From a virus, in IMG/VR virus record IMGVR_UViG_3300025400_000011, positions 1-64,000 of that record: 64,000 bases of DNA. One strand, 5' to 3'. The translations under genes and the position numbers were made by a program. The notes under the pieces are model-generated. The model was not told where the DNA came from. It saw nothing but the letters and a program-made list of their open reading frames with translations, and did not search any database. Shown here in pieces: positions 28,307-55,737 of this stretch (within the stretch, counting starts at the first letter, position 1; each line of letters begins with the position of its first letter).

Positions 28307-31300
28307 ATGGCGGACAATCCGTATACACAGTACCCATCAATCGTTTATCCGCATGAACTTCCAACAGTTCCAGCGGCACAACCTAGTGATTTGCTCTTTT
28401 TGGAGCAAAATAACGGAAATGGAACCTATACAACTTACTCGATAGCTATTTCTTCAGTTTCTGCTGTTGGTCCTTCTGGTCCTACCGGTCCAACAGGTCC
28501 TATAGGTCCGCAAGGCCCTGCTGGTCCTTCTGGTCCTTCTGGCGCACAAGGTGCTCAAGGTTCACAAGGTACACAGGGTTCACAAGGTGCTCAAGGCTCA
28601 ACAGGCCCGCGCGGTATTTCTGGTTATTCAGGCGCAACAGGTACTTCAGTAACAATAGTTGGTTCAGTACCAACTGCATCAGCTTTACCTTTTCCTTATA
28701 CAGGTAATGCTGGTGATGGTTATATAGTAGAAGATACCGGTCATTTAAATGTATGGAATGGTAGTGCTTGGGTAGATGTTGGTCAAATAAAAGGAGACTC
28801 TGGTACATCTGGTTTTAGCGGCGCACAAGGTGCACAAGGCAATCAAGGTGCGTCTGGTTTTTCAGGTGCTTCTGGTTCAGCTGCCATTGGGTTAATACTT
28901 TACCCAACTACTAACTCAGCTGACATAACCCCTTATAACTTTTCTGACTCAGTACCTCAAATAGGTGCACAAGTACCTCTAGATGTAGTCTTTACTAATG
29001 CTAATGACCCTGTTGGTGTTATTAGTACTATTACACTTTCTGGTGCTCCTAATAAGTCGTTAATTAATACTGGTACCTGGTACTTTGATACGTATTATGC
29101 TTTATCAGGCCCTAATGCATATAATGCTAATACATATTTTGTTTATGTAGTAAGCAAATGGGACGATGCTACAAGCACTAAGACTTCTTTATTCTCTGCT
29201 ACAAGTGATTTCATCACTAAAACGCCTTATATTGATCCTATATTATCAAGGACACCATATTATATAAGCGTACCTATACCTTTAAATGTAACTGATCGTT
29301 TAATAGTTGAAACTTTAGCTATTACTACAGACCCAGATGCAGAAGACATAACATACATTTATTTAGGTACAGATTACTATAGTAGAGTCATTACCAACAT
29401 TGCACTTGGTGCAGATGGTAAAGATGGTGCGTCTGGTTACAGTGGTTTTACAGGCCAATCAGGTTGGTCTGGTATTTCAGGTTATAGTGGTGATTCAGGT
29501 ATATCTGGTTTTAGTGGCGATTCTGGTTTGTCTGGTGAAAGCGGTATATCGGGCTATTCAGGCTTTAGCGGTATAGACGGAGATTCTGGTTATAGTGGTT
29601 ATACAGGCTTTTCAGGCTTTAGCGGTATATCAGGTTTTAGCGGTTATACAGGTATTTCAGGCTACTCAGGCTTTACAGGTACTTCAGGTTGGTCTGGTTA
29701 TTCAGGCTACTCTGGTACTTCAGGTTGGTCTGGTTATTCAGGCTTTAGCGGTTATACAGGTATATCTGGTTACACCGGTTTTAGCGGCTTTACCGGCTTT
29801 AGCGGTTTTTCAGGCTATAGCGGTATTAGTGGTTATACTGGTACCTCTGGTATTAGCGGTTACTCAGGTTATAGTGGTATATCTGGTTACACAGGCGCTT
29901 CAGGCTATTCTGGTATTTCAGGCTACTCTGGTACATCTGGTATCAGTGGTTATTCTGGGTACTCTGGTTTTAGCGGTATATCAGGCTTTAGTGGTGGCTC
30001 AGGTATATCAGGTTATTCTGGTGTAAGCGGTTATTCTGGTTTCTCTGGCTACACCGGTATTAGTGGTTATACAGGCTTCTCTGGTTACAGTGGTATTTCT
30101 GGTTTCACGGGTTTTAGTGGTAATTCTGGTATTTCTGGTTACTCTGGTTATTCTGGCTTCTCTGGTATTTCTGGTTACTCGGGCTTTACAGGTATAAGTG
30201 GTTACACTGGTATATCTGGTTATACAGGCTTTAGCGGTATATCTGGTTACTCTGGTAAAAACGGTACTTCAGTTACTATTATTGGTACGGTACCAACTGT
30301 TGGCGGTAACCCACAAGCTACATTAAACGCAGCGTTCCCAGGTGCAGTTAATGGTAATGGTGTTATAGACGAAACATCTGGTGACTTATGGGTATATGCA
30401 AATGGTACCTGGACTAATGTTGGTCAAATAAAAGGCGACACCGGTGCACAAGGTGCGCAAGGTAATTCAGGCTTTAGCGGCTTTAGCGGTATTAGTGGTT
30501 ACAGCGGCATAAGCGGTTATAGTGGTATTTCAGGCTTTAGCGGCGATTCTGGTATCAGCGGCTATACAGGCTTTAGCGGTATATCAGGCTTTTCTGGTAT
30601 ATCTGGTTATAGTGGTTATTCTGGTATTTCTGGTTACACAGGTATCTCTGGTTTTAGCGGTACATCTGGTTTTAGCGGTATTAGCGGTTATTCTGGTTTC
30701 TCAGGCTACTCTGGTATAAGCGGTTATAGCGGTAACTCCGGTATATCTGGTTATACAGGCTTTAGCGGTGGCTCTGGTATTAGTGGTTTCTCGGGTTATA
30801 GCGGTTTAAGCGGCTATACCGGTACTTCTGGTATTTCAGGTTATAGCGGCTTTACAGGTGTCTCAGGTTATACTGGTTGGTCAGGTTACTCTGGTATTAC
30901 TGGTTACTCTGGTACTTCTGGTTTCTCTGGGTTTAGCGGTTTTAGCGGCATTTCAGGCTACTCCGGCTTTAGCGGTATTAGCGGTTTCAGCGGTATTAGT
31001 GGCTTTAGCGGTGACTCTGGTATTTCAGGCTGGTCTGGCGATTCTGGCATTTCAGGCTATAGTGGTTTTAGCGGTACTTCAGGCTACAGTGGTGACTCTA
31101 CACCTGGTGTAGTATTATACCCAACTACTTTAACTTCTGATGTTGTAGGTTACAACTATATTGGACCTGATGCACAAAACGGAGCTGAAACATATGTTGA
31201 TTGTATATTTAATACAACTCAAAACCCAGCACCTGTTCTATTAACTGTAACCTTATCAGGCTATCCTTTAAGAGGTGTAATCAATACAGGCAACTGGTAC

Positions 31301-32878
31301 TTTGATACTTGGTATTCATTATCAGGTCCAAATGCATATAATGCACAAACTTATTTTACGTATATTGTAAGTACCCTTGATGTAAGCGGTAATAAGACTC
31401 AACTGTTCTCAGTAATGAGTGATCAGTTAGTTAAAACACCAAACCCAACTTACATTCGTACTCAATACTATATAGACAATGCTATATACATTAATACTTC
31501 TGACCGTATTGTAATAGATATACGTGGTTATACTACAGACACTCAAACAGAAGTCTTAACATACTATTTCTTAGGTACTACACATTATAGTAGTGTTATA
31601 ACTAATATACCTTTTGGTTTCAGTGGTCAATCTGGTTATTCTGGCTTTAGTGGTTTCTCAGGCTGGACCGGTTATAGCGGCTTCTCTGGTTTCTCTGGTA
31701 CTTCAGGTTTTAGCGGCTTTACTGGTTACTCAGGTTTCTCCGGTATAAACGGCATTAACGGTGCTTCAGGTTATACAGGCTTTAGTGGTTATACAGGCTT
31801 TAGCGGTTTTAGTGGTATATCAGGCTTTACTGGCTTCTCAGGCTATAGCGGTATAAGCGGTTTTACAGGCTTTAGTGGTTTCTCAGGTTATAGCGGCTTT
31901 AGCGGTACATCAGGTTATTCTGGTGTAAACGGTACTTCAGTTACTATTATCGGTACAGTACCGACTGTTGGTGCTAATGCACAAGCTACTTTAAATGCTG
32001 CTTACCCATCAGCTGTAAACGGTAACGGTGTCATTGACGAAACAACTGGTGATTTATGGGTATACGCTAACGGTACTTGGACTGATGTCGGTCAAGTAAA
32101 GGGTGATAAAGGTGATTCTGGTACCTCAGGTTGGTCTGGTATATCAGGTTTTTCTGGTCAATCAGGCTTCTCTGGTTTCTCAGGCTTTAGCGGTGACCCT
32201 GTTAACATTTCTAGTCAGTTAATAATGGCTACTAACTCGTTTAGCGCTGGTCAAGTACTAAGACTAAACTACGGAGACGGTTTATGGTACCTAGCTCAAG
32301 CTAATAACGTTGTAAATGCTGAAGCAACTGGTGTAGTAGAATATGCTACTTCGAGTCTATTCTATATTGTATATAACGGATTAATAACTTTCAACACTTC
32401 TGATATTAATAACTTAGTACCAGGGGATTGCTTATTCCTTTCACCAACAGTTGCTGGTGCTACAACTTCAGATAATGTAAGTGCATTAAACACAGTTTCA
32501 AAACCAATAATGCGCGCTGTTTCAAGCAACGTTGCAGTAGTTGTTAATGAACGTGGCATATTAAACACTAGCGATAATGTTCTTAACTCTTATGTTCCGG
32601 CAACATATGTAACAAATGCCTACTATACAGCTACACCTAGTGATTACTTTATCGGAGTAAATGTAGGGGGTCAAGCAACAGTTACACTACCGGTTGGTAC
32701 ACCAGGTAAGACATACACCATTAAGGATATGTCAGGAAATGCTAACACAACAACAAATCTTATTACTATATCCGCAACAAACCCAGATCTGATTGATGGA
32801 AGCACGTTTGATGTGATCGATACACCTTACGAAACAGTTTCTGTAATATATATTGGAGGTATGTGGAATTTAGTTTAA
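28307..32878 (+). CDS. Fibre protein 1: Gly-X-Ser/Thr repeats with two beta-sandwich-like domains, three small knobs and C-terminal globular domains
   Basis: 1523 aa. Short GPT/GAQ collagen stretch followed by long SGY/SGF/SGI tracts. Duplicated LYPTT..WYFDT..LSGPNAYNA domain (about 28890-29410 and 31103-31612). Confidence 0.75.
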   Translation: MADNPYTQYPSIVYPHELPTVPAAQPSDLLFLEQNNGNGTYTTYSIAISSVSAVGPSGPTGPTGPIGPQGPAGPSGPSGAQGAQGSQGTQGSQGAQGSTGPRGISGYSGATGTSVTIVGSVPTASALPFPYTGNAGDGYIVEDTGHLNVWNGSAWVDVGQIKGDSGTSGFSGAQGAQGNQGASGFSGASGSAAIGLILYPTTNSADITPYNFSDSVPQIGAQVPLDVVFTNANDPVGVISTITLSGAPNKSLINTGTWYFDTYYALSGPNAYNANTYFVYVVSKWDDATSTKTSLFSATSDFITKTPYIDPILSRTPYYISVPIPLNVTDRLIVETLAITTDPDAEDITYIYLGTDYYSRVITNIALGADGKDGASGYSGFTGQSGWSGISGYSGDSGISGFSGDSGLSGESGISGYSGFSGIDGDSGYSGYTGFSGFSGISGFSGYTGISGYSGFTGTSGWSGYSGYSGTSGWSGYSGFSGYTGISGYTGFSGFTGFSGFSGYSGISGYTGTSGISGYSGYSGISGYTGASGYSGISGYSGTSGISGYSGYSGFSGISGFSGGSGISGYSGVSGYSGFSGYTGISGYTGFSGYSGISGFTGFSGNSGISGYSGYSGFSGISGYSGFTGISGYTGISGYTGFSGISGYSGKNGTSVTIIGTVPTVGGNPQATLNAAFPGAVNGNGVIDETSGDLWVYANGTWTNVGQIKGDTGAQGAQGNSGFSGFSGISGYSGISGYSGISGFSGDSGISGYTGFSGISGFSGISGYSGYSGISGYTGISGFSGTSGFSGISGYSGFSGYSGISGYSGNSGISGYTGFSGGSGISGFSGYSGLSGYTGTSGISGYSGFTGVSGYTGWSGYSGITGYSGTSGFSGFSGFSGISGYSGFSGISGFSGISGFSGDSGISGWSGDSGISGYSGFSGTSGYSGDSTPGVVLYPTTLTSDVVGYNYIGPDAQNGAETYVDCIFNTTQNPAPVLLTVTLSGYPLRGVINTGNWYFDTWYSLSGPNAYNAQTYFTYIVSTLDVSGNKTQLFSVMSDQLVKTPNPTYIRTQYYIDNAIYINTSDRIVIDIRGYTTDTQTEVLTYYFLGTTHYSSVITNIPFGFSGQSGYSGFSGFSGWTGYSGFSGFSGTSGFSGFTGYSGFSGINGINGASGYTGFSGYTGFSGFSGISGFTGFSGYSGISGFTGFSGFSGYSGFSGTSGYSGVNGTSVTIIGTVPTVGANAQATLNAAYPSAVNGNGVIDETTGDLWVYANGTWTDVGQVKGDKGDSGTSGWSGISGFSGQSGFSGFSGFSGDPVNISSQLIMATNSFSAGQVLRLNYGDGLWYLAQANNVVNAEATGVVEYATSSLFYIVYNGLITFNTSDINNLVPGDCLFLSPTVAGATTSDNVSALNTVSKPIMRAVSSNVAVVVNERGILNTSDNVLNSYVPATYVTNAYYTATPSDYFIGVNVGGQATVTLPVGTPGKTYTIKDMSGNANTTTNLITISATNPDLIDGSTFDVIDTPYETVSVIYIGGMWNLV

Positions 32879-32905
32879 AAACACTCTCAAAACCTGCTAA
32901 AGAAA

Positions 32906-32913
32906 TATAAATA
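32906..32913 (+). promoter_or_regulatory. T4-type late promoter TATAAATA
   Basis: Exact consensus in the intergenic gap before 32934. Confidence 0.7.
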
Positions 32914-32933
32914 TTAACAAATAACAAACTACT

Positions 32934-35900
32934 ATGGCAAATTCATTCGTCTACTCAGCAATTAGAGGTGCATCCGGCTTTTCCGGCTTCAGCGGGCAAA
33001 TAGGTACGTCCGGTTGGTCAGGTATATCTGGTTATTCTGGTGCATCAGGTGCCATAGGCCAATCAGGCTACTCCGGTATCTCTGGTTATTCAGGCTTTAG
33101 TGGCTTCTCAGGTTGGTCTGGTATAAGCGGCTATAGTGGTTTTACAGGTATTTCAGGTTTTAGTGGTATCAGTGGTTATAGTGGTTTCACTGGTATTTCT
33201 GGTTATACTGGTATTAGTGGTTACACTGGTATAAGCGGCTTTAGCGGCTTTACAGGTATTAGTGGTTGGTCTGGTATTTCCGGTTACTCTGGCTTCACAG
33301 GTATTTCTGGTTATTCAGGCTTTACTGGTATTTCAGGTTATTCAGGCTTTACAGGTATTAGCGGTTTTAGTGGTATTAGTGGCTACTCCGGCTTTTCAGG
33401 CTTTACTGGTATCTCAGGTTTTACAGGTATCAGTGGTTATTCCGGCTTTACCGGTATTTCAGGTTATTCTGGCTTCTCTGGTATAAGCGGTTTTACAGGT
33501 ATTTCTGGTTGGTCTGGTTATTCTGGTATTAGCGGTTTTAGCGGCTTTACCGGTATTTCAGGTTATTCTGGCTTCTCAGGCTTTACCGGTATTTCAGGTT
33601 GGTCAGGTATTTCTGGCTACTCCGGCTTTACAGGCATAAGCGGTTACAGCGGCTTTACAGGTATTTCAGGTTATACTGGTATATCTGGTTTTACAGGTAT
33701 TTCTGGTTTCAGCGGTATTAGCGGTTGGTCAGGTATTTCTGGTTATTCCGGCTTCACTGGTATAAGCGGTTATTCCGGCTTCACTGGTATTTCAGGTTAT
33801 ACCGGTATTAGCGGTTATAGTGGTATTAGCGGCTATAGTGGTTTTACAGGTATTTCAGGTTATACTGGTATATCTGGTTACAGCGGCTTTACAGGCTTTA
33901 GCGGTTATTCTGGCTTTACTGGTATTAGCGGTTACTCTGGCTTTACTGGTATTTCAGGTTATACAGGTTTCTCTGGTATCTCTGGTGGTACCGGTGCATC
34001 CATTTACGGTAGAACGTACTACCTACAAGAAGTAACAAGTGATCAAAACCCAACAGTATTTGAAGTAATGTCGTTAGTACCAGGCGGTGGTGGTACAGAT
34101 GTAAACGACGACGTATTAGCTCTTAACTCTACCACAGCAGGTCCAGGTAGCCCAAGCGCTTACGGTTGGTACTTAACACCAATTGGGGAACCAGGCTTAG
34201 TTGAAATTCCAGCTGGTTTGTGGGAATTCGATTTCTATCGTAACGTTTCTGCTAGCGCAGCAAACTTTGTTATTAGCGTATATAGTTACTCAATGGCTAC
34301 AAGCGCTACTAGCGCATTCATCTTAAGTGCTGATTCAGGCCCTGTTACAGATACAGTTTCAACTTTCCAAAAATTAGGTTACGTTACAAGCACGATTACA
34401 AAACTTTCTGCAACAGATCGTATCTTATTACAAGTTGCAGCTTACACAACAAGTACAGCAACAATTAGCGCTTCATACCATTACAATGGTAGTTCGATAT
34501 ATTCCGCTTTACGTACTCCAATCGGTCAAGGTGTTAGTGGTACATCTGGTTATTCCGGTATTGGTACTTCTGGTTACTCTGGTTTTAGCGGTATATCTGG
34601 TTTTACTGGTATCAGTGGTTTCAGCGGTATCAGTGGCTGGTCTGGTATTTCAGGCTACTCCGGCTTTAGCGGTATATCAGGTTATACAGGTATATCAGGT
34701 TATAGCGGTATTAGCGGTTACTCAGGCTTTACTGGTATTTCAGGTTACACTGGTATTAGCGGTTATAGCGGTATTTCAGGCTTTAGCGGCTTTACCGGTA
34801 TTAGCGGTTTTAGCGGTATTAGCGGTTGGTCTGGTATCTCAGGCTACAGCGGCTTTACCGGTATTTCAGGTTATACTGGTATCAGTGGTTTCACAGGTAT
34901 TTCAGGTTATTCTGGTATCAGTGGCTACAGTGGCTTTACAGGTATAAGCGGTTATTCAGGCTTTACCGGTATATCAGGTTATAGCGGCTTCACTGGTATT
35001 TCAGGTTACACAGGTACATCTGGCTACTCTGGTTATAGCGGCTTTACAGGTATAAGCGGTTATTCAGGCTTTACTGGTATATCAGGTTACTCCGGCTTTA
35101 GCGGCTTTACAGGTATAAGCGGTTACTCAGGCTTTACTGGTATATCAGGTTTCTCTGGTATCAGTGGCTATAGTGGCTTTACCGGTGTATCTGGTTTCAC
35201 TGGTATATCAGGTTTCTCTGGTATTAGTGGTTGGTCTGGTATTTCAGGCTACTCTGGCTTTACAGGTATTAGCGGTTACTCTGGTTTCAGTGGCTTCACT
35301 GGTATTAGTGGTTACTCAGGCTTTACCGGTATATCTGGTTACTCTGGTATTAGTGGCTATAGTGGCTTTACTGGTATATCGGGTTATACAGGTATAAGTG
35401 GTTTCAGTGGCTTTACCGGTATTAGCGGTTTCAGTGGTATTTCAGGCTTCAGTGGTTACACTGGTATGTCTGGTGCTACAACAAATATTTCAAGTCAAGT
35501 CATTACATACACGAACAGCTTTAGCGCTGGTCAAGTAGTACGTCTTGACAACGGTTCAAGCGGTTGGTTCTTAGCTCAAGCAGACAATGTAACAGATGCA
35601 GAAGCAACAGGTGTTGTCGCATCAGCTTCAGCTACAGGCTTCACCATTATATACATGGGCTTGATTACAAATCTTGCAAGCTTAACTCCTGGTGAATGTT
35701 ACTTCTTATCACCAACAGTTGCAGGTGCTGTAACAACAGTTGCTCCAAGTGCTTTTGGTACAGTATCGAAACCGGTCATGAGAGCTATTACATCTTCAAC
35801 AGCTGTAGTAGTAAATGAACGTGGTTATCTAAACTCTGATAACGCGTTGTTACTATATCCAAACGTACAAGGTGTACGTCTAGTAACAAGCAACCCATAC

Positions 35901-36152
35901 GTTGTACAATCAACTGACGAATATATCGGTATTAACGTTGCTACTCCAACCACTGTTTATCTACCAGCAATCGCAGGTATACAACAGGGCTTGTATGTAA
36001 CTATTAAAGATGAATCTGGTAATGCTAAGACAAACAACATTACATTATCTGGTGCAGGCGTAACCGTTGATGGTCAAGCTACTTACTTGTTAAACTACAA
36101 CTACGAAGCTGTATCATTAATATACAACGGCACTAACTGGTTTATCATATAA
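32934..36152 (+). CDS. Fibre protein 2: two Gly-X-Ser/Thr arms around a central globular domain
   Basis: 1072 aa. Arms about 32960-34001 and 34530-35478. C-terminal domains are paralogous to fibre 1. Confidence 0.75.
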   Translation: MANSFVYSAIRGASGFSGFSGQIGTSGWSGISGYSGASGAIGQSGYSGISGYSGFSGFSGWSGISGYSGFTGISGFSGISGYSGFTGISGYTGISGYTGISGFSGFTGISGWSGISGYSGFTGISGYSGFTGISGYSGFTGISGFSGISGYSGFSGFTGISGFTGISGYSGFTGISGYSGFSGISGFTGISGWSGYSGISGFSGFTGISGYSGFSGFTGISGWSGISGYSGFTGISGYSGFTGISGYTGISGFTGISGFSGISGWSGISGYSGFTGISGYSGFTGISGYTGISGYSGISGYSGFTGISGYTGISGYSGFTGFSGYSGFTGISGYSGFTGISGYTGFSGISGGTGASIYGRTYYLQEVTSDQNPTVFEVMSLVPGGGGTDVNDDVLALNSTTAGPGSPSAYGWYLTPIGEPGLVEIPAGLWEFDFYRNVSASAANFVISVYSYSMATSATSAFILSADSGPVTDTVSTFQKLGYVTSTITKLSATDRILLQVAAYTTSTATISASYHYNGSSIYSALRTPIGQGVSGTSGYSGIGTSGYSGFSGISGFTGISGFSGISGWSGISGYSGFSGISGYTGISGYSGISGYSGFTGISGYTGISGYSGISGFSGFTGISGFSGISGWSGISGYSGFTGISGYTGISGFTGISGYSGISGYSGFTGISGYSGFTGISGYSGFTGISGYTGTSGYSGYSGFTGISGYSGFTGISGYSGFSGFTGISGYSGFTGISGFSGISGYSGFTGVSGFTGISGFSGISGWSGISGYSGFTGISGYSGFSGFTGISGYSGFTGISGYSGISGYSGFTGISGYTGISGFSGFTGISGFSGISGFSGYTGMSGATTNISSQVITYTNSFSAGQVVRLDNGSSGWFLAQADNVTDAEATGVVASASATGFTIIYMGLITNLASLTPGECYFLSPTVAGAVTTVAPSAFGTVSKPVMRAITSSTAVVVNERGYLNSDNALLLYPNVQGVRLVTSNPYVVQSTDEYIGINVATPTTVYLPAIAGIQQGLYVTIKDESGNAKTNNITLSGAGVTVDGQATYLLNYNYEAVSLIYNGTNWFII

Positions 36153-36156
36153 AGTG

Positions 36157-36164
36157 TATAAATA
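36157..36164 (+). promoter_or_regulatory. T4-type late promoter TATAAATA
   Basis: Exact consensus in the intergenic gap before 36183. Confidence 0.7.
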
Positions 36165-36182: not shown

Positions 36183-39100
36183 ATGAGCAATACATTTGTA
36201 TACACAGCAATTAAAGGACAATCCGGTTTTTCAGGCGCGCAAGGTGTAGCAGGAGCTACAGGCACTTCTGGTTATTCCGGTATCTCTGGTTATACAGGTA
36301 TTAGCGGCTTCACTGGTATATCCGGTTATAGCGGCTTTACCGGCACTTCCGGTTACTCTGGTTTCACAGGTATATCTGGTTTTACAGGTATATCTGGCTA
36401 TACTGGCTTTTCAGGTATATCCGGTTATACAGGTATATCTGGCTATTCTGGTATCTCAGGCTTTAGCGGTTTTACTGGTATTAGCGGTTATAGTGGTTTT
36501 TCTGGCTTTACAGGCATCTCTGGCTATACCGGTGTAAGTGGTTACAGCGGTTTTAGTGGAACAAGCGGCTACTCTGGTATTTCAGGTTATTCAGGCTTTA
36601 CAGGTATATCTGGTTATACAGGTATATCTGGTTATTCAGGCTATTCAGGCTTTAGCGGTTTTTCAGGTATTAGCGGTTATTCCGGCTTTAGCGGTTTTAC
36701 AGGTATCAGTGGTTATTCAGGCTTTACTGGTATATCAGGCTTCACTGGTATAAGCGGTTACTCTGGTTTTTCTAGCTTTAGTGGTTATAGTGGTTTCTCT
36801 GGTGTATCTGGTCCAACAGGTGCTTCTATATACGGTAGAACATATTTTTTTAATGAAACCAATAGTGACCAACCTGCTTATGAAACAATTGCATTGACAC
36901 CGGGTGGTGGTGGGGTTACTCAATATGATGATGTTGCTTATGTTAACAGTACTAATAGTAATGCTTATAGTGCACAATCAATAGGTGGTTATTTAACTCC
37001 TATTGGAGAGCCAGGTATTGCAGAAATACCAGCTGGTATTTGGGACATTGAATGGTTTTATCAAGTAGGCGCGGGTGCAACAACACCAAACCCTTCTGCA
37101 GGCTTTGTATTTAGTTTGTATAGCTATTCAATGGCTACAAGCTCAACTAGTGCATTTATTTTAAGTGCAGATACAGGAGCAGTGTTTACAACAGCTGCAA
37201 CACCAACATATACTAAGTTTAGTTATGTAACAAGTAATATTACTTTACTTTCAGCTACAGATAGAATACTTGTTAATGTAGGAATGTATTCACCGAATAC
37301 ACAAACAGTATCGGCTACATTTATATATAATGGTGCAACTAATTATTCTGTAATTAGAACTCCAATCGGTCAAGGTGTATCTGGTGCTTCTGGTTATTCT
37401 GGTGTTGGTACTTCAGGTTATTCAGGCTTTACTGGTATATCTGGTTTTACAGGTATTTCTGGCTATAGCGGTTTTTCTGGTGCTAAAGGCTCTACAGGTA
37501 CATCTGGTTATAGCGGCTTTACAGGTATTTCTGGTTATACAGGTATATCAGGTTATAGCGGTATAAGCGGTTACTCAGGCTTTACAGGTATAAGCGGTTA
37601 TTCAGGCTTTAGCGGTTTTACTGGTATATCTGGTTACTCAGGTATTTCTGGTTGGTCTGGCTTCACTGGTATATCAGGCTTTACTGGTATTTCAGGCTAT
37701 AGTGGTTTTAGTGGTATAAGCGGTTACACCGGTATATCTGGCTATAGTGGTATCAGTGGTTTCTCAGGTTTTACAGGCATAAGTGGTTATACCGGTATAT
37801 CAGGCTATTCTGGTATTAGTGGTTTTTCAGGCTTTACAGGTATATCAGGCTTTACAGGTATTTCTGGTTACTCTGGTTTTACAGGTGTATCAGGCTATAG
37901 CGGCTTTACTGGTATTTCCGGTTATACTGGTATATCAGGTTATTCTGGCTTCTCTGGTTCTGCTGGGGTTTCCGGTTTTAGTGGTATATCTGGTTTTTCT
38001 GGTACAAGCGGTTTAAATGCTACTAATGTAAACGTAACATACAGCAACTCTTTTAGTCCAGGCAATGTTATATACAAAACTTCTGGTGGTTATGCTTTAG
38101 CACAAGCAAATGCAGCTTCTACATCAGATATTATTGGTGTTGTAATAAGTGCAACAGGTACATCATTTCAGTATGTAGCTAACGGCTACACTTCAGGCTT
38201 TACCGGTATTGTAGACGCTGCACAATACTATCTTTCAGATACTACAGCAGGTCTAATGACCACAACACCTCCTTCAGCTATTGGTTCTATTATTAAACCA
38301 GTAATGATTGGTATAGGTACTACAGCTGGTCTAATAGTTGAGTATCCTGGTTCACAGATTCAGGCTGCTAATGCAAATTCTGGTTATTCTGGTTTTTCCG
38401 GTGCAGGACAATCTGGTTACAGTGGTTTTTCTGGCTTAAAAGGCTCAACAGGCGCTCAAGGTTCTACAGGTAGTACTGGTACATCTGGTTATTCGGGCTT
38501 TAGCGGAACTAATGGTACAAATGGTACTAACGGTACTTCTGGTTATTCAGGCTTTAGTGGTACAAATGGTACTAACGGTACTTCTGGTTACTCTGGTTTT
38601 ACAGGCATATCTGGTTATAGCGGTTTTTCAGGCTTTTCTGGAGCATTTGCAGGTAGTACAGGTACTACAAATTATGTAGCTAAGTTTACAGGTACGAATT
38701 CATTAGGCACAGGCTTAATATACGACAATGGTACTAATGTTGGTGTTGGTCTAACAGCTCCTAATACAAGCTTACAAATAAATAACAATGGTACTTACGC
38801 TACGACCGGTAATATGAATACCGGTATAGTTGTAGGTAATAACACTAGCGGAGCAGCTCTCAACTCTGGTGCATATGATTCAGGTACTACTACGACTTCT
38901 TATGGCTGGTTTAATACTGGTTATGCCAATAATGCTAATATAGGCGTTTCTATGATTTTTGCTGCAGGTGGTACCGAAAAAATGCGTATTACTACTGGTG
39001 GTAATGTCGGTATCGGTACGACTGCACCTAGCGGTACACTTACAGTTGCTGGTTCTTTGTCAGCTAAAACAGCAAGTATAGCTCAAAACTTTACAGTGGA

Positions 39101-41558: not shown

Positions 41559-41570
41559 ATAAATATTTTT

Positions 41571-42641: not shown

Positions 42642-42654
42642 CTATTTAACGAAT

Positions 42655-43287: not shown

Positions 43288-43288
43288 T

Positions 43289-45620: not shown

Positions 45621-45634
45621 TATAAAATATAGCT

Positions 45635-46842: not shown

Positions 46843-47868
46843 ATGGCATATTTTAATCCAGCAAACGCTTACTCAGGTTATTCAGGCTACGGTGCACAAG
46901 GCTTCCAAGGAGCTCAGGGCGCTACAGGTGCTCAAGGTGCACAGGGTTTCCAAGGCCCACAAGGCGTTTCTGGTTACTCAGGCTTTACTGGCATAAGTGG
47001 TTATAGCGGTTTTACTGGTATTTCTGGTTACTCCGGCTTCAGCGGTGTTAAAGGTTCAACAGGTCTTTCTGGTACTTCAGGTTACTCAGGCTTTACTGGT
47101 ATTTCAGGCTACTCTGGTTTCTCTGGCCCACAAGGCTTCCAAGGACCTCAAGGTTTTTCAGGTACATCTGGTTACTCAGGCTTTACTGGTATTTCAGGTT
47201 TTAGTGGTCCTGGCGCTAACCAAACATTAAACACAAACAGCACTGTAGTATTCCAAACACTTTCAGCATTTTCAATCAGTGCAGTTAACTTAATCACGTT
47301 AAACGAGTATTTTGCATCTGCATCAAACTTTACTACATATGGTAATACGTTATTAAGTGGTGCTACTACAGTACAAGGTAACATGACTGTAAACGGTGTA
47401 GTCTTAGCTTCAGGTAATCTAGGTGTTGGTACAGCTTCACCAAGTTCCACATTAACAGTTAACGGTACATTATCAGCTGCTGGTGCAGTTGCTGTATCCA
47501 ATAACACATTTACGATTGATAAGACTGGTAACGTAGTAGCTTTAAGCTATAGTTCAACATCTACAAGACTACAAAAGACTAACATCAGAGATTTAGAAGA
47601 TGTTATTCCTGATGCTTTAGGCGTTACTCAAAACCTACACCCAGTTGTATACGATAGTTTAGTTGATGCATCAAGCAAAGACAACATCGGTCTTATTGCT
47701 GAAGACGTGTATTCTTTATTACCAAATGTGGTTAACCAATACACTGATGCTAATGGTGACCAAACATTTGTTGGTATTGATTACAGCCGTCTAACAGCTA
47801 TTCTTATTGATAACATTAAAGTGTTATCAAACAAGATTCAAGAGCTTAGTGCAAAGCTGCCACAATAA
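46843..47868 (+). CDS. Short Gly-X-Y fibre with S74-type chaperone
   Basis: GFQ/GAQ/SGY triplets, NQTLNT, GNLGVGT.SP and TSTRLQKTNI..IGLIAEDV..IDYSRLTAIL. Confidence 0.8.
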   Translation: MAYFNPANAYSGYSGYGAQGFQGAQGATGAQGAQGFQGPQGVSGYSGFTGISGYSGFTGISGYSGFSGVKGSTGLSGTSGYSGFTGISGYSGFSGPQGFQGPQGFSGTSGYSGFTGISGFSGPGANQTLNTNSTVVFQTLSAFSISAVNLITLNEYFASASNFTTYGNTLLSGATTVQGNMTVNGVVLASGNLGVGTASPSSTLTVNGTLSAAGAVAVSNNTFTIDKTGNVVALSYSSTSTRLQKTNIRDLEDVIPDALGVTQNLHPVVYDSLVDASSKDNIGLIAEDVYSLLPNVVNQYTDANGDQTFVGIDYSRLTAILIDNIKVLSNKIQELSAKLPQ

Positions 47869-47881
47869 CGTAAGTTAGAGT

Positions 47882-48115
47882 GTGGCTACACTTAAAACAA
47901 GCGTATTCAATCTTACCGAAACTCTAATAAACACTATTAGAGTGTATCGACAACAAGGAGCGGTGCTTGCTTCTGAGAGTAGGCAAGTTGCACGTATGGA
48001 TTCTTGTTCAAACTGTGAAAAGCTATCTGAAAAAGGCATATGTAATGTATGTGCTTGTTATATGAACTTAAAGGTTCGTCTTGAAGCAGCTAAATGCCCA
48101 CTTGGGAAATGGTAA
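47882..48115 (+). CDS. Small Cys-rich protein (DUF6171-like)
   Basis: R...CSNC......CNVCAC....K......CPLGKW. GTG start with TAAGTT 5 nt upstream. Confidence 0.6.
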   Translation: MATLKTSVFNLTETLINTIRVYRQQGAVLASESRQVARMDSCSNCEKLSEKGICNVCACYMNLKVRLEAAKCPLGKW

Positions 48116-48143
48116 AAACGTATTTCTGCTGTAAGTAATAATA

Positions 48144-49178: not shown

Positions 49179-49179
49179 C

Positions 49180-52100
49180 ATGTCGCTAACAACAGTAAAC
49201 CAACTTAGTCTTATACCTGCAGCCGCTGGGGTTTCAGGCCGTTCTGGTTTTTCTGGCTTCTCTGGGTTTCCTGGAGCACAAGGAGCACCCGGTGGTGCTT
49301 CTGGTTATAGTGGTCAATCAGGTACTTCTGGTTTCTCTGGGTTTACCGGTTTCAGTGGTTTTAGCGGTCTAAACGGTACAGTAGCATATTCCGGTACTTC
49401 TGGTTTCTCTGGGTTTAGCGGTTTTAGCGGTTATTCAGGCGCTACCGGTTTTAGCGGTTTTTCTAGTTTTTCAGGCTTCTCTGGGTTTTCAAGTTTTAGT
49501 GGTTATTCTGGCTACACCGGTCAATCTGGTTTTAGTGGTATATCAGGCTTTAGCGGTATAAGTGGTTTTAGCGGTATATCTGGTTATAGTGGTATGAGCG
49601 GTTTTACAGGTATATCTGGTTTCAGTGGTGCTCCTGGTGCAGCTGCAGCTTCCGGTTATTCTGGTTTTAGCGGTTATAGCGGTATTTCCGGTTATAGTGG
49701 TTTTTCTAGCTTTTCCGGTTACAGCGGTTTTAGTAGCTTTAGTGGTTACTCGGGCTTTAGCAGTTTTTCAGGTTTTTCAGGTTACTCCGGTTTTAGCAGC
49801 TTTAGCGGGTTCTCTGGTTTTAGTAGCTTTAGTGGTTTTTCAGGTACATCAGGTTATTCTGGTCAATCTGGTTTCTCAGGCTTCACTGGTTTATCAGGCT
49901 ATTCTGGTACGAGTGGTTTTAGCGGGAATTCAGGTACATCAGGTTATAGCGGGTATACCGGTTTACAAGGCTATTCTGGTTTAAGCGGTTATTCCGGACA
50001 ATCAGGTTTTAGCGGCATTTCAGGATGGTCAGGAGATTCAGGTATTAGCGGTTATTCTGGCTTTAGCGGTCAATCTGGTGCTTTAGGCATTTCAGGTTTT
50101 TCTGGTTACAGTGGTCAATCAGGCTACTCTGGTACTTCTGGTTATGTAGGTATTTCTGGTTACAGTGGTTTTAGCGGACAATCTGGTTGGTCTGGTTATT
50201 CTGGTATAAGTGGTACTAGTGGTTATTCTGGTCAATCAGGTTTTTCAGGCCCGTCTGGTTATTCCGGCTTTACAGGTATTTCTGGCTACTCTGGCTTTAG
50301 TGGTCAAGTAGGTACAACCGGTCAATCAGGTTATTCTGGTTTTAGTGGTCAATCAGGTTACAGTGGTCAATCTGGCTTCTCTGGTATTTCAGGCTTTAGT
50401 GGTTATACAGGTACATCTGGTACTTCTGGTTACTCCGGTATTAGCGGTTATTCAGGCTTTACTGGTATTTCAGGTACCTCAGGCTATTCCGGTTCAGTAG
50501 GTACATCCGGTACTTCAGGTTATTCCGGTACTTCTGGTTATTCAGGGCTTTCTGGTTACTCAGGTACAAGCGGCTATTCCGGTACTTCAGGCTATTCTGG
50601 TACAATAGGTACAAGCGGTTATTCTGGTATTAGTGGTTACTCAGGCTTTACTGGTATTTCAGGCTATTCCGGTTTTACAGGTACTTCAGGCTTTACTGGT
50701 ATATCTGGTTATAGTGGTATTTCAGGCTTTAGTGGCTTTACTGGTATTTCAGGTTATTCTGGACAATCAGGCTACTCCGGTACTTCTGGTACGGTAGGTA
50801 CTTCAGGTTACTCCGGTTATTCTGGCTTGTCTGGTGCTTCAGGTTATTCTGGTTTATCAGGCTTTAGCGGTATATCAGGTTATACAGGTATTTCAGGTCA
50901 TTCAGGCTTTAGTAGTTATTCTGGTTATAGCGGTCAATCAGGTTTTACAGGTATTTCTGGTTTCTCAGGTTGGTCAGGGCCAACAGGCGGTTCGGTTTAC
51001 GGTAGAACGTACTTCTTTAATGAAACTAATAGTGATCAAAACCCAGCAGTATTTGAACAACTAACCTTACAACCAGGTGGTATTAGTATAGAAGACGATC
51101 AAGTCACTATTACATCTGCAGCAGGTATAAGTGCTATTGGTTGGTACTTAACACCCCCAGGTGAACCTGGTTTAGTATATATTGAATCAGGTCTATGGGA
51201 TATTGAGTTCTACCGTTACGTAACGGGTGGTAGTGCTGGGTTTATATTCAGTATATACACATTCTCGATGGCTACTAGTGCCACGAGTACATTTATTTTA
51301 AGTGCTGATTCAGGACTTGTTTCTGATACAGTTTCGACATATCAAAAGATAGGCGCTGTTACAAGTAGTATCACCTCTCTATCTTCTACAGATCGTATTT
51401 TACTACAAGTAGCTGCTTATACTAACAGTGTAACACCAGTAACTGCTGCTTACCAATATAATGGTAGTTCAGTGTACAGTGTAGTACGTACTCCTATTGG
51501 TCAAGGTGTTGCTGGTCAGTCTGGTTATTCTGGCTACAGCGGTTTAGGTTATTCAGGCTACAGTGGTCAATCAGGCTATAGTGGTTTTACAGGCTTTAGT
51601 GGCTTCACTGGTATTAGTGGTTTCACTGGTACTTCAGGTTATTCAGGCTTTACAGGTATTTCTGGTGCTTCAGGCTATTCTGGTACAGTAGGTATTAGCG
51701 GTACTTCAGGTTATTCCGGCTTCACTGGTATATCTGGTTACTCTGGTATCTCTGGTTTTTCAGGCTTTACTGGTATAAGCGGTACTTCAGGTTACTCTGG
51801 CATTTCAGGTTATTCTGGTATTTCTGGTTATAGTGGTTATTCTGGTGCTTCAGGTTATTCTGGTACATCTGGCTTCTCTGGTATCTCAGGCTTTACTGGT
51901 ATTAGCGGTTATTCAGGCTTTACAGGTATTTCAGGTTATAGTGGTACTTCAGGCTACTCAGGTACATCTGGTTACAGCGGTTATTCCGGTCAATCTGGTT
52001 TCTCAGGTATATCAGGCTATAGTGGTACTTCAGGCTTTAGCGGTATATCTGGTTATAGCGGTTTTACAGGTCAATCTGGTACTTCAGGTTATAGCGGCTT

Positions 52101-55100
52101 AAGCGGTTATAGCGGTACTTCAGGTTTCTCAGGCTTCACAGGTATAAGCGGTTATTCCGGTCAATCAGGCTTTAGTGGTTTCACTGGTATATCTGGTTAC
52201 TCTGGTACTTCAGGCTTTAGTGGTATATCAGGCTTCTCTGGTTACACCGGTATTTCAGGCTTCTCAGGTATTAGCGGTTGGTCAGGCTATTCTGGCTTTA
52301 CGGGTTTATCAGGCTTTAGTGGTTACTCCGGTTTATCAGGCTTTACAGGTATTTCAGGTTACTCAGGCTTTAGTGGTCAAATAGGCTACTCTGGTCAATC
52401 AGGCTTTAGTGGTTTTACTGGTGTAAGCGGGTTCAGTGGTACATCTGGTATTTCTGGTTATTCTGGCTTTACAGGCATTTCCGGCTTTAGCGGTATTTCA
52501 GGCTTTAGCGGTATAAGCGGTTTTAGCGGTATTTCTGGTTACTCTGGTTTATCAGGGTTCTCAGGTTACACAGGTATAAGTGGTTTCTCAGGCTTTACAG
52601 GCGCTTCTGGTTTCTCTGGTATATCAGGCTGGTCTGGCTATAGCGGCTTTAGCGGTTTTTCAGGCTTTAGTAGCTACTCCGGATTTAGCGGCTTTAGTGG
52701 TTTCTCAAGCTATTCCGGTTTCTCAGGGTTTAGCGGTTTTTCAAGCTTCTCTGGTTTCTCTGGTTTTAGTAGCTTCTCTGGTTTCTCAGGCTTCAGTAGT
52801 TATTCCGGTTATACAGGTGTTTCTGGTTACTCTGGTTATTCTGGTTTTACTGGCTTCTCAGGCTTTACTGGTTGGTCTGGTTTTAGCGGTTATCAAGGCT
52901 ACTCTGGTTTTAGTGGCTTCTCTGGTTTTAGTGGAGCAGGTATAACAAGTACTGCTACTACAAGTTATATACCTAAGATGTCAAGCTCGACATCTGTAGC
53001 TAATAGTTTAGTATATGACAACGGTACTAATGTAGGTATCAATACTACTAGCCCAGCACATACATTACATGTCCAGGGGGATATATATTCTTCTGGTGCT
53101 ATTATCGGTAGTATCAACAATACACTTAAAACAACTAATGTCGGTGCTACTAGTTCAATATATGTAAGATCAGACGGTAGCACAGGCGCATTTAATGATT
53201 CTAATACTGCTTTCTATGTAGATAATATCGGTAACTTATCTATTTTCAATCAGCTTTACTATAACTCTTCTACACAAAAGTTCGTCATTGCTGGTACATT
53301 GCAAGCAGCTTCAATAGGTGCAACAAGTGCAATATATATTGCTGCAACAGGTGTTACACCTTCATTTAGTGCATGCAATACACCTTTCTATGCTGATAAT
53401 ACTGGTAACTTCTCGTTAGGTAATAAGTTTGCTTGGAACAGTAAGACAAACGTTTTAAATGTTGGTGGTACAATAAATGCTGCTAATATAGGTGCAACAA
53501 GTGCTATATACATTGCTGGTGCAACAGTAACACCTTCATTTAGTGCTTCTAATACACCTTTTTGGGTAGATAGTTCTGGTAGATTATCTCTAGGTAGCAA
53601 ACTTACCTGGGACGGTAATGGTACGTTAAATGTAGGTGGTACTATTAAGACTACAACAGCAGACGCTACAAGTGCAATATATGTAAGAGCAGATGGTGGT
53701 GTTGGTGCATTTAACGACTCTAATACAGCTTTCTGGGTAGATAATACTGGTAACTTATCTATTTTTAATAAACTTTATTACAATGCTTCTACTCAAAAGT
53801 TCTGGATCGGTGGGACATTGCAGGCTTCTACAGTAGGTTCTACTAGTGCAATATATGTACGTACAGATGGTAGTGCTGGTGCATATAACAACTCAAGCAC
53901 ACCATTCTATGTAGATAATACAGGTCAATTTTCTCTTGGTAATAATGTAACTTGGAGCGGTGGTGCATTAACAGTAAATGGTACTGTTACTACTGGTGCA
54001 TTAACAGCTACAGGTGGTAAAATATCAAACTGGAATATTAATACCAATAGTTTTACATCAACTAATGGTGATATAACTCTTAATAGTAGTTCTACCCCTT
54101 ATATAGGCGTTAATACAACCACATTTGGTAGTGCTGGTATATTCTTAGGTAAGAGTGGTACTAACTACGTATTCTATGCAGGTAACGGTAGTAATCAAGC
54201 TTTAAAATGGGACGGTAGCGCATTAACAGTATCCGGTACTATTGGTGCAACTGCTGGTAATATAGGTGGTTGGGGTATAGGTAGTACATCTCTTACATCA
54301 ACTAATATAACTATTGATAGTTCTGCCGGGTCAATAACAAGTACAGATGGTGCTGGTAGTTATGTATATCTTACTTCAAACTTTGTAAGCGGTTATGGTG
54401 GTGCTGTAACTAATAGCGCATCTTACAAGTTATATGCTTTAGGTAATGGTGCATATTTAAATATTTCAAATGCCTCTTTTAGTGTTGGTGGTGGGGTAGC
54501 TAGTAGCTCATTAGCTACGTGGTCGGTTACAGGTGGTGGTGGTACAGTTTCAATGACCCCCGGCAGATTAGATGCAAGTTCTGCAGTTTCTGGTTTTAGT
54601 GGTACTTTCACTCGTCTAGTAGTTGGTAATAACGGTTTTGATGTTACAGGTGGTGGTACAATATCTGGAGATGTAGGACTAGGTACAGGTGCCAAGATAT
54701 ACCTACATGCAGCTTCAGGTTGGGTAGGAGTTTCAGGCGGTATTGCATTCGGAGATGGTACTACAATGAACACTGCTGGTGGTTCTACTGGACCACAAGG
54801 TGCTTCTGGTACTTCAGGGTGGTCTGGTTTTAGCGGTATAAATGGCTCTAACGGTGCTTCTGGTACTTCAGGGTGGTCTGGTTTCTCTGGACAAAAAGGT
54901 GCAACAGGACCGCAAGGATTAAGAGGCCCAACAGGACCACAAGGGCAAAGAGGTCCTACAGGTTCTCAAGGCTTTAGCGGTATTTCAGGTTGGTCTGGCG
55001 CAAAAGGTGCTCAAGGTTCACCTGGTTCAACTTCTTATAACCAATCTCTCAACACATACAACTCTGTAACATTTGCAGGTCTAACAGTTTCTGATGGTAC

Positions 55101-55737
55101 AGCTAGTGATGTAGTAGCTACATTTAGTGGTTTAGTAAACCTTCAATCAGGTACAGTTGGACCACACGTAATATATACTGCAGGAGCTGCAGGTACCACT
55201 GGTAATGAATACGGTTTAGGTTTATCCGATTCTTCGTATGGTAATCCTGCAAATACTTGGTTAAAAGGTAACGGTGATGCTTCCTTTGGTGGTGCTGTTT
55301 CTAAAGGCTCTGGTTCATTTAAAATTAACCATCCGTTACCCTCGTTAAGTGCTACAAACTATTTAGTACATTCATTTATTGAAGGTCCAAGAGTAGATCT
55401 TATATATAGAGGTACAGCAGCACTTAGTGCAGGTCAAGCTGTTTTAAACTTAGATGAAACAGTAGGTATGACAGAAGGTACGTTTGTAGCTTTATGTAGA
55501 GAGGTACAAGTATTTGTTACAAATCAAACAGATTGGTCTGGTGTGCGTGGTTCAGTTACTGATAATATTTTAACCATAACATGTCAAGATCCTTCTGCTA
55601 CGTCTACTGTTAACTGGATGGTAATAGGTGAACGTCATGACCCACACATTATTAGTACAAGCTGGACTGATGCAAGCGGTAAACCTATATTAGAACCAGT
55701 TATTCCACCACCAATACCATTATCTGCTATATTATAA
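49180..55737 (+). CDS. Giant fibre protein: long Gly-X-Ser/Thr arms, central domain, tandem beta repeats and C-terminal FKINHP/HSFIEGP domain
   Basis: 2185 aa. Repeat arms about 49228-50994 and 51505-52938. Five ATSAIY..F...NT.F.VD..G..S repeats. C-terminal SGSFKINHP...LVHSFIEGP...GERHD. Confidence 0.8.
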   Translation: MSLTTVNQLSLIPAAAGVSGRSGFSGFSGFPGAQGAPGGASGYSGQSGTSGFSGFTGFSGFSGLNGTVAYSGTSGFSGFSGFSGYSGATGFSGFSSFSGFSGFSSFSGYSGYTGQSGFSGISGFSGISGFSGISGYSGMSGFTGISGFSGAPGAAAASGYSGFSGYSGISGYSGFSSFSGYSGFSSFSGYSGFSSFSGFSGYSGFSSFSGFSGFSSFSGFSGTSGYSGQSGFSGFTGLSGYSGTSGFSGNSGTSGYSGYTGLQGYSGLSGYSGQSGFSGISGWSGDSGISGYSGFSGQSGALGISGFSGYSGQSGYSGTSGYVGISGYSGFSGQSGWSGYSGISGTSGYSGQSGFSGPSGYSGFTGISGYSGFSGQVGTTGQSGYSGFSGQSGYSGQSGFSGISGFSGYTGTSGTSGYSGISGYSGFTGISGTSGYSGSVGTSGTSGYSGTSGYSGLSGYSGTSGYSGTSGYSGTIGTSGYSGISGYSGFTGISGYSGFTGTSGFTGISGYSGISGFSGFTGISGYSGQSGYSGTSGTVGTSGYSGYSGLSGASGYSGLSGFSGISGYTGISGHSGFSSYSGYSGQSGFTGISGFSGWSGPTGGSVYGRTYFFNETNSDQNPAVFEQLTLQPGGISIEDDQVTITSAAGISAIGWYLTPPGEPGLVYIESGLWDIEFYRYVTGGSAGFIFSIYTFSMATSATSTFILSADSGLVSDTVSTYQKIGAVTSSITSLSSTDRILLQVAAYTNSVTPVTAAYQYNGSSVYSVVRTPIGQGVAGQSGYSGYSGLGYSGYSGQSGYSGFTGFSGFTGISGFTGTSGYSGFTGISGASGYSGTVGISGTSGYSGFTGISGYSGISGFSGFTGISGTSGYSGISGYSGISGYSGYSGASGYSGTSGFSGISGFTGISGYSGFTGISGYSGTSGYSGTSGYSGYSGQSGFSGISGYSGTSGFSGISGYSGFTGQSGTSGYSGLSGYSGTSGFSGFTGISGYSGQSGFSGFTGISGYSGTSGFSGISGFSGYTGISGFSGISGWSGYSGFTGLSGFSGYSGLSGFTGISGYSGFSGQIGYSGQSGFSGFTGVSGFSGTSGISGYSGFTGISGFSGISGFSGISGFSGISGYSGLSGFSGYTGISGFSGFTGASGFSGISGWSGYSGFSGFSGFSSYSGFSGFSGFSSYSGFSGFSGFSSFSGFSGFSSFSGFSGFSSYSGYTGVSGYSGYSGFTGFSGFTGWSGFSGYQGYSGFSGFSGFSGAGITSTATTSYIPKMSSSTSVANSLVYDNGTNVGINTTSPAHTLHVQGDIYSSGAIIGSINNTLKTTNVGATSSIYVRSDGSTGAFNDSNTAFYVDNIGNLSIFNQLYYNSSTQKFVIAGTLQAASIGATSAIYIAATGVTPSFSACNTPFYADNTGNFSLGNKFAWNSKTNVLNVGGTINAANIGATSAIYIAGATVTPSFSASNTPFWVDSSGRLSLGSKLTWDGNGTLNVGGTIKTTTADATSAIYVRADGGVGAFNDSNTAFWVDNTGNLSIFNKLYYNASTQKFWIGGTLQASTVGSTSAIYVRTDGSAGAYNNSSTPFYVDNTGQFSLGNNVTWSGGALTVNGTVTTGALTATGGKISNWNINTNSFTSTNGDITLNSSSTPYIGVNTTTFGSAGIFLGKSGTNYVFYAGNGSNQALKWDGSALTVSGTIGATAGNIGGWGIGSTSLTSTNITIDSSAGSITSTDGAGSYVYLTSNFVSGYGGAVTNSASYKLYALGNGAYLNISNASFSVGGGVASSSLATWSVTGGGGTVSMTPGRLDASSAVSGFSGTFTRLVVGNNGFDVTGGGTISGDVGLGTGAKIYLHAASGWVGVSGGIAFGDGTTMNTAGGSTGPQGASGTSGWSGFSGINGSNGASGTSGWSGFSGQKGATGPQGLRGPTGPQGQRGPTGSQGFSGISGWSGAKGAQGSPGSTSYNQSLNTYNSVTFAGLTVSDGTASDVVATFSGLVNLQSGTVGPHVIYTAGAAGTTGNEYGLGLSDSSYGNPANTWLKGNGDASFGGAVSKGSGSFKINHPLPSLSATNYLVHSFIEGPRVDLIYRGTAALSAGQAVLNLDETVGMTEGTFVALCREVQVFVTNQTDWSGVRGSVTDNILTITCQDPSATSTVNWMVIGERHDPHIISTSWTDASGKPILEPVIPPPIPLSAIL

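Follow-up and report, generated by a model that had tools for sequence, protein, structure and literature searches.

Aromatic Gly-X-Ser/Thr arms in the tail-fibre-type proteins of an uncultured T4-like myovirus: a candidate collagen-type shaft almost devoid of proline and charge

Seven open reading frames (ORFs) for collagen-type fibres, designated F1 to F7, lie on the plus strand of the first 64 kb of the virus record IMGVR_UViG_3300025400_000011 (IMG/VR; 108.9 kb, estimated to be 58% complete). This 64-kb stretch is referred to here as the window, and positions are given in its numbering unless stated otherwise (Table 1). Each fibre ORF is open in its own frame only. Four of the encoded proteins, F1, F2, F3 and F6, together contain 979 Gly-X-Y triplets, counted throughout in runs of at least four triplets, and the longest unbroken runs comprise 124, 120, 115, 101 and 96 triplets. 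More than 100 in-phase glycines without a break cannot be of chance origin. The original prediction, which was made from the nucleotide sequence alone, had announced four large fibres with hundreds of triplets and three further ones with shorter tracts, and the counts agree with this (30 to 43 triplets in each of F4, F5 and F7). The region delimited at that time (28307-55737) does hold F1 to F6 but ends short of F7.

The composition of the triplets is unusual. Pooled over F1, F2, F3 and F6, the X position is occupied by Phe, Tyr, Ile or Trp in 75.9% of the triplets, a share that rises to 82.9% once Thr is added. The Y position is Ser or Thr in 92.3%, mostly Ser, with Thr in the minority. Pro accounts for 1.1% and Asp, Glu, Lys and Arg together for 1.4% of the X and Y positions. 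In the two arms of F2, X is F/Y/I/W in 94% and Y is S/T in 99% of the triplets, with neither Pro nor any charged residue. KGE/KGD motifs occur four times in F1 and not at all in F2 to F7. Ordinary, Pro-rich GP[STQ] collagen is restricted to short flanks, namely residues 55-114 of F1, residues 1868-1951 of F6 and the early part of the tract in F7. The preference for F/Y/I/T/W at X and for Ser/Thr at Y, the near absence of Pro and charge, and the confinement of ordinary collagen to short flanks had thus all been foreseen correctly.

In the large fibres the triplet arms are combined with other domains. F1 begins with an N-terminal anchor and a short Pro-rich collagen segment, after which aromatic G-X-S arms of 96, 74, 36 and 11 triplets are broken up by two jelly-roll domains and three β domains of about 50 amino acids (aa); a C-terminal domain of 225 aa completes the protein. 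F2 consists of an 11-aa N-terminal peptide, a 115-triplet arm, a jelly roll, a second arm of about 105 triplets and a C-terminal domain of 223 aa. The N-terminal part of F3 has an arm of 62+5 triplets, a jelly roll and an arm of 4+67 triplets, and its remainder is made up of a domain related to the F1/F2 C-terminus, a 27-triplet arm and a tail-fibre C-terminus with an S74 chaperone. In F6, a jelly roll lies between two arms of about 125 triplets each, followed by a 613-aa β-repeat shaft, a Pro-rich collagen segment and a C-terminal domain of 231 aa. The β-repeat shaft is not collagenous; it is composed of β-type repeats of about 65 residues and weakly matches one PHROG without an assigned function.

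Table 1. Fibre genes and associated features in the 64-kb window
Feature	Position	Strand	Description
F1	28307-32878	+	1523 aa, 247 triplets
F2	32934-36152	+	1072 aa, 220 triplets
F3	36183-39452	+	1089 aa, 165 triplets; S74 chaperone 39156-39314
F4	39462-40493	+	343 aa, short fibre; 43 triplets, mostly GAQ/GST/GTS; S74 chaperone 40140-40319
F5	46843-47868	+	341 aa, short fibre; 36 triplets (X 58% aromatic/Ile); S74 chaperone 47572-47733
F6	49180-55737	+	2185 aa, 347 triplets
F7	57829-61173	+	1114 aa; 30-triplet tract (Pro-rich, then G-F/Y-S), long β shaft; S74 chaperone 60877-61047
Central jelly roll, F2 copy	34002-34535	+	~175 aa
Other jelly-roll copies	28883-29407, 31100-31615, 36828-37379, 50995-51504	+	two in F1, one each in F3 and F6
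Collagen-interrupting β domain, F1	30272-30433; also 28649-28792, 31940-32101	+	~50 aa
Shared N-terminal peptide (F2, F3, F4)	32934-32969, 36183-36218, 39462-39494	+	directly precedes the first triplet
Gly-to-Ser cluster, F6 arm 1	49708-49827	+	five S-F/Y-S triplets, 386, 395, 407, 416 and 425 residues before the jelly roll
Mirror Gly-to-Ser cluster, F6 arm 2	52672-52800	+	five substitutions, 385, 397, 409, 418 and 427 residues after the jelly roll
TATAAATA box, T4 late-promoter type	32906-32913	+	21 nt upstream of the F2 start
Second TATAAATA box	36157-36164	+	19 nt upstream of the F3 start
F2 C-terminal domain	35481-36149		223 aa
F6 non-collagen shaft	52942-54780		613 aa
Six-gene cassette	40497-46702		between F4 and F5

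All seven fibres match the Pfam family Collagen (PF01391), scoring 31-471 bits against a curated cut-off of 27.2. The matches have E values of 1e-71 to 1e-145, the alignments resting mainly on the glycines. The S74 family (PF13884; cut-off 22 bits) is recognized in F4 (41.4 bits), F7 (25.8), F5 (25.2) and F3 (23.2), and the C-terminal, non-repeat parts of the same four proteins match tail-fibre PHROGs (best E 6e-28). The window further codes for a large terminase of the T4 type, a neck protein, a tail sheath and a gp5-like hub, the terminase being at most 36% identical to that of any cultured phage. Because of this myovirus context, the four S74 ends with their tail-fibre PHROG matches and the Pfam Collagen matches in all seven proteins, we assign the fibres, on sequence criteria, to the tail-fibre type of an uncultured T4-like myovirus.

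Judged from the sequences, the composition of the arms is selected at the protein level and does not result from a recent expansion at the DNA level, because codons are scrambled, Ile is almost never followed by Ile at X and 28 related viral contigs show the trait in synteny. Serine codons in the arms are drawn from both the TCN and the AGY family. The nonapeptide GISGYSGFT is present 24 times in F2, each time encoded by a distinct DNA sequence (24 of 24; third-position identity 0.52), and the units that Tandem Repeats Finder detects in the arms match at 60-80% only. Neighbouring triplets rarely carry the same X residue, as indicated by a lag-1 identity of 0.05-0.11 versus 0.18-0.29 expected; the short arm 3 of F1 (0.23) is the exception. 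Ile-Ile adjacency was observed once where 50 cases were expected, and Tyr-Tyr adjacency 12 times instead of 59. This grammar extends beyond the present phage: in 90 of 108 unrelated metagenomic proteins of the aromatic G-X-S type, identical residues at X follow one another less often than expected. Pairs of aliphatic neighbours are likewise underrepresented in this set, and steps from Ile to Trp or to Tyr are overrepresented. A second regularity behaves differently. In this phage, Thr at Y is nearly confined to G-F/Y-T triplets that are followed by G-I (98 of 144 Thr residues; Fisher p 2e-34), and we considered that the Thr-Gly-Ile coupling reflects a general structural rule. It is absent, however, from the unrelated proteins of this type (odds ratio 0.63). 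Since it is not general among those 108 proteins, the coupling is treated as lineage history, probably the legacy of a 9-residue unit.

Syntenic fibre genes were found at 28 IMG/VR loci, where they stand in the same order behind terminase and neck genes. Terminase identity at these loci lies between 89% and 61%, and aromatic residues or Ile still take up 82-94% of the X positions in the arms. The fibres are hypervariable in length; at the F6 position, the gene product has between 630 and 2185 aa. A word-index search with an F2 arm retrieved 343 metagenomic proteins at E<=1e-10, none of them carrying a name. When a strict filter was applied (at least 50 triplets, aromatic/Ile at X at least 0.6, S/T at Y at least 0.8), 27 of the 119 arm-matching proteins analysed passed. 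By this sequence-based measure, the aromatic G-X-S repeat type is common in environmental phages and not unique to the present one. Among 50,697 phage records, megablast with 20 kb of sequence gave no match, nor did tblastn when queried with P0159, the arm or the central domain. In the same set, arm DNA used with blastn in 'distant' mode retrieved a single record, Methylophilaceae phage P19250A. Our literature searches found no description of aromatic Gly-X-Ser collagen in phages.

The jelly-roll domain occurs in five copies, two in F1 and one each in F2, F3 and F6. A word-index search with this domain yielded no match; its relatives emerged from an exhaustive profile search, which gave 1030 protein clusters at E<=1e-3. 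Among the top 150 profile matches, 54 have at least 10 Gly-X-Y triplets, mostly Pro-rich and low in aromatic residues, and the rest have few or none. Several relatives possess two or three copies of the domain linked by collagen spacers of 6-21 triplets in a beads-on-a-string layout. AlphaFold predicts a confident β sandwich (predicted local distance difference test, pLDDT, >90), for which VIA-align ranks the C-terminal jelly rolls of CocE/PepX first (Z 14.2-11.5), followed by carbohydrate-binding modules (CBMs; Z 7-8). A TNF/C1q-like fold was considered and discarded, TNF-like structures reaching only Z 6.5-6.8 in VIA-align and the Foldseek matches to TNF and Pgp3 being weak (TMq 0.19-0.27). 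Matches in BFVD are uncultured-phage proteins annotated as 'collagen triple helix repeat' and S74 proteins. The domain links the aromatic arms to conventional phage collagens through a shared architecture, and its predicted structure suggests a lectin-like knob in the shaft.

With this in mind, the view that the proteins are an unusual virion fibre material separate from phage collagens has to be divided. Judged from gene context, they are probably encoded by virion fibre genes, and their composition is unusual, conserved and selected. A separate standing in architecture, by contrast, finds no support: PF01391 matches all of them, their layout is the usual one of anchor, β-interrupted collagen arms and S74 or tip domain, and in most of the collagen-bearing relatives examined the tracts next to the mid-shaft domain are ordinary Pro-rich collagen.

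Structure prediction of the arms as monomers, which was proposed at the outset, did not reveal a monomeric fold. In the AlphaFold model of F3 residues 1-640, which covers arm, domain and arm, the arms have a pLDDT of 32-40 and no secondary structure. According to a review of polyproline-II (PPII) helix bundles, collagen-type helices contain one third Gly and polyglycine-II assemblies about two thirds or more (10.1101/2023.11.25.568672). Because the Gly register is strict and unbroken, Gly makes up one third of the arms, some of the fibres carry trimerising chaperones, collagen adjoins the inserted domain in its homologues and no monomeric fold is predicted, we favour a trimeric collagen-type shaft of unusual chemistry on the host-recognition fibres of a myovirus related to pelagi- and cyanomyophages. 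We rate the probability of this model at roughly 60%. The chains would probably trimerise under the guidance of the C-terminal S74 chaperone or tip domain, and the G-[F/Y/I/W]-[S/T] arms would then zip into long collagen-type triple helices. As collagen rises by 0.286 nm per residue, the helices would measure about 140-300 nm per fibre. Gly would be buried on the axis and the side chains of X and Y would point outward, which would give the rod a surface of alternating aromatic and isoleucine rings beside a stripe of seryl/threonyl hydroxyls. The CBM-like jelly rolls and small β domains would be inserted in-line as knobs and could bind host glycans, and the C-terminal domains would form the distal tips. 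What the sequences and models show is the repeat with its conservation and selection, the match to the collagen family, the fibre context and the fold of the inserted domain. For F1, F2 and F6 we infer the trimeric state itself; that the arms are triple-helical, that the domains sit in-line and what the knobs do likewise belong to the model. Candidate stabilisers are aromatic-aliphatic stacking between successive rings, hydration of Ser/Thr, and O-glycosylation.

Several points weigh against the trimeric collagen-type helix. On the host-guest scale of Persikov et al. 2000, Phe, Tyr and Trp at X and Ser at Y reportedly rank among the least favourable residues. Known collagen stabilisers are Pro/hydroxyproline, KGE/KGD salt bridges and Thr-rich triplets (PMC11923368); the first two are missing from the arms and Thr-type triplets are only partly present. 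The collagens in the PDB align to the arms via glycines only, and F6 has at least 12 Gly-to-Ser substitutions in clusters, which would disturb a collagen helix locally. Furthermore, neither a recognised family nor a trimerisation domain was found for the C-terminal domains of F1, F2 and F6 in Pfam, PHROG and PDB profile searches. For the F2 C-terminal domain, the nearest named cluster in the ESM Atlas is 'Phage cement protein' (PF09956; score 0.89), but identity as a capsid cement was dropped because it received no support from Pfam at E<=10 or from the PDB profile search. It is tempting to speculate that the arms represent a separate natural class of triple helix which is stable without imino acids or salt bridges and is held together by an aromatic-aliphatic ladder, by O-glycans on serine or by both, and which in some fibres could bring two arms together antiparallel as a folded-back multi-strand rod; we put this forward tentatively. 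If true, such a class would widen the sequence rules for collagen folding and provide a new proline-free fibre material.

Glycine at every third residue would also produce a PPII helix with a glycine face, and the arms might accordingly form a polyglycine-II-type bundle or another regular non-collagen fold, similar to the snow-flea antifreeze protein or the S16 gp38 adhesin. Phage fibre tips are indeed known to use such bundles; those described consist of short helices joined by turns, and their Gly content rises with the number of neighbouring helices (10.1101/2023.11.25.568672). They are far richer in Gly than the arms, in which Gly is exactly one third, and the arms lack periodic turns across more than 100 triplets and show no compact fold in the AlphaFold monomer. 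The polyglycine-II bundle of the original prediction is for these reasons highly improbable.

The poor confidence of the AlphaFold monomer, which leaves the arms unstructured, could alternatively indicate that the arms are not triple helices. They would then be extended Ser/Thr-rich chains, heavily O-glycosylated or otherwise modified in a mucin-like or adhesive manner, with Gly as a flexible spacer, or form a disordered or FUS-like brush. The 92% Ser/Thr at Y would suit such chains, as would two GT2 genes that the genome has beside those for an APS-kinase-like protein and an acyltransferase, and the position of the related P19250A gene directly upstream of a methyltransferase and a GT2 gene. 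However, disorder or phase separation requires neither a Gly register maintained over 100 and more triplets nor a grammar that is kept while the codons are scrambled, and the trimerising S74 domains and the collagen-flanked homologues of the jelly roll point to a regular trimer. FUS-type low-complexity [G/S]Y[G/S] domains space their aromatic residues irregularly, in disordered polar surroundings and with no fixed register. The strict three-residue register and the ordered grammar (Ile-Ile 1 versus 50 expected) of the arms also make the FUS-like mesh that had been proposed initially unlikely, and we assign a low probability to extended or disordered chains as a whole.

Glycosylation of the arms is nevertheless possible, as far as the gene content can tell. 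The two GT2 genes and their neighbours, which code for an APS-kinase-like protein, DUF6445 and an acyltransferase, occupy 97.8-102 kb of the genome. They belong to a cluster at about 95.5-102 kb (L034 3589-10062) that codes for CsgG, a cNMP-binding protein, an APS-kinase-like/cytidylyltransferase-like protein, the two GT2, DUF6445 and a hexapeptide acyltransferase; FecR is encoded just upstream. Its products might modify the sugars of the fibres or of the host surface. The link between GT2 and fibres in the present lineage is weak because the GT2 genes lie more than 40 kb from the fibres, share no homology with the methyltransferase/GT2 pair of P19250A, and have homologues at five loci of which only one has a fibre of the aromatic type within 10 kb. 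A prolyl-hydroxylase-type 2-oxoglutarate oxygenase, GT1 and GT8 were not found in the 108.9-kb record, which is about 58% complete.

The Gly-to-Ser clusters in F6 bear on a further alternative, in which the chain reverses at the jelly roll so that arms 1 and 2 run antiparallel with their aromatic faces packed against each other. Such a fibre would consist of two triple helices or a six-chain PPII assembly, with the jelly roll at the distal tip and both chain ends at the virion. The breaks in F6 are mirrored around the jelly roll within two residues (Table 1), a positional match for which we estimate, post hoc, a chance of about 1-2%. The two arms differ in length by no more than about 10% in F2, F3, F6 and several orthologues of F2, and aromatic residues exposed at the surface would promote side-by-side packing. 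In jelly rolls of this type the N and C termini usually lie next to each other, which is in line with a reversal of the chain but would fit a looped-out side knob equally well. Mirrored breaks are seen in F6 only, and F1 has two jelly rolls and unequal arms (10|96+74|36). At the F6 position, orthologues combine arms of unequal length (97/41, 79/41, 67/196 and 6/43 triplets), and in L010 the arms extend over 363/183 residues; matched arm length, which holds in about half of the distinct proteins examined, was rejected as a general rule. The spacers of 6-21 triplets in multi-copy relatives agree with domains strung in line like beads, and no pairing between the arms is modelled with confidence in the AlphaFold monomer. 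Taken together, we consider a folded-back fibre unlikely, albeit less so than extended or disordered chains.

In the cultured Methylophilaceae phage P19250A, gene P19250A_0023 (APC43908.1; KX815270.1 21390-24995) resembles the fibres described here. Its product of 1201 aa contains 281 Gly-X-Y triplets, with runs of 138 and 127, F/Y/I/W in 61% of X and S/T in 81% of Y positions, and 0.7% Pro. It also has the ~50-aa β domain of F1. The gene is annotated as 'tail length tape-measure protein' but sits in the tail-fibre region, downstream of host specificity protein J, and directly precedes a methyltransferase and a GT2 gene. By its sequence it is a collagen-like fibre gene, and the tape-measure annotation is probably wrong. 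Unlike the present phage, P19250A is a siphovirus of 38.7 kb and not a T4-like myovirus, and its fibre protein is more acidic at X (7% charged) and lacks a jelly roll of the present type. No BLAST homologues of its methyltransferase and GT2 were detected in the searched stretches of the present phage.

Collagen-like tail fibres of phages and prophages, defined by PF01391 plus S74 and exemplified by EPclA of enterohaemorrhagic Escherichia coli prophages (PMC3368898), share with F1 to F7 the Gly-X-Y shafts and the location in a tail-fibre module, and with F3, F4, F5 and F7 also the trimerising flanks and the C-terminal intramolecular chaperone. In the phage collagens described so far, Pro, Thr, Gln or charged residues are abundant, and stability is credited to them (PMC11923368, PMC8968730). 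The fibres studied here differ from them in having 1.1% Pro, 1.4% charge and aromatic residues or Ile at X. The glycosylated GXT collagens, represented by BclA of the Bacillus exosporium, are alike in being Pro-poor or rich in hydroxyls at Y and in placing a trimeric β sandwich on a collagen-like stalk; BclA (1wck) is the sole non-animal PDB chain that matches the arm. BclA is, however, rich in GPT/GAT, has Thr at Y, a C-terminal C1q-like domain and documented glycosylation. In the present fibres Y is mostly Ser and X aromatic, and the jelly roll is internal and nearest to CocE/PepX-C and CBM folds. With respect to gene arrangement, the present fibre region agrees with the host recognition cluster of pelagimyophages and cyanomyophages, a large hypervariable fibre island that adjoins the neck genes and is reported to include 'triple collagen repeats' (PMC7029224). 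The aromatic-serine composition is not described there. CsgG, which is encoded by the present phage, has been reported as a feature of pelagimyophages (PMC7029224).

The fibre region also contains a six-gene cassette, which codes for two phrog_1417 paralogues, phrog_1604, phrog_1409, a phrog_1458 methyltransferase fusion and a DUF401-like membrane protein. It is 44% identical to genes of cyanomyovirus P-HM2 (PHM2_098-101), where the homologues adjoin giant non-collagen fibre-like genes. We considered that the cassette is a system dedicated to modification of the arms, and rejected this because the P-HM2 homologues stand without a Gly-X-Y tract in the 25.7-kb stretch examined. In contigs L006-L009, the cassette and the C-terminus of F4 are 99-100% identical to the window, whereas the C-terminal domains of F1 and F2 are only 68-81% and the terminase 89% identical. 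The sequence pattern in these contigs indicates mosaicism through recombination, with the large fibres at its centre, as expected for host-range genes. F2, F3 and F4 have in common a conserved N-terminal peptide of about 11 residues (M-x-x-x-F-x-Y-[ST]-[AI]-x-x-G type), which may be a common virion docking peptide, and boxes of the T4 late-promoter type precede F2 and F3 (Table 1).

Our analysis describes a large natural family, comprising hundreds of proteins from environmental phages, that is conserved under clear selection at the protein level. It seems to build shafts of 100-300 nm from residues rated as poor helix formers and almost without Pro/Hyp, charge pairs and Thr-rich, possibly glycosylated triplets, to which collagen stability is currently ascribed. 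If the arms are truly triple helices, they would expose a gap in the rules that relate collagen sequence to stability and would suggest to materials research a fibre that is proline-free, uncharged and aromatic on its surface. Otherwise, the Pfam Collagen label would conceal a new regular fold in many annotations of phages. As the cultured phage P19250A, which infects freshwater LD28 methylotrophs, carries such a gene, the question is directly testable.

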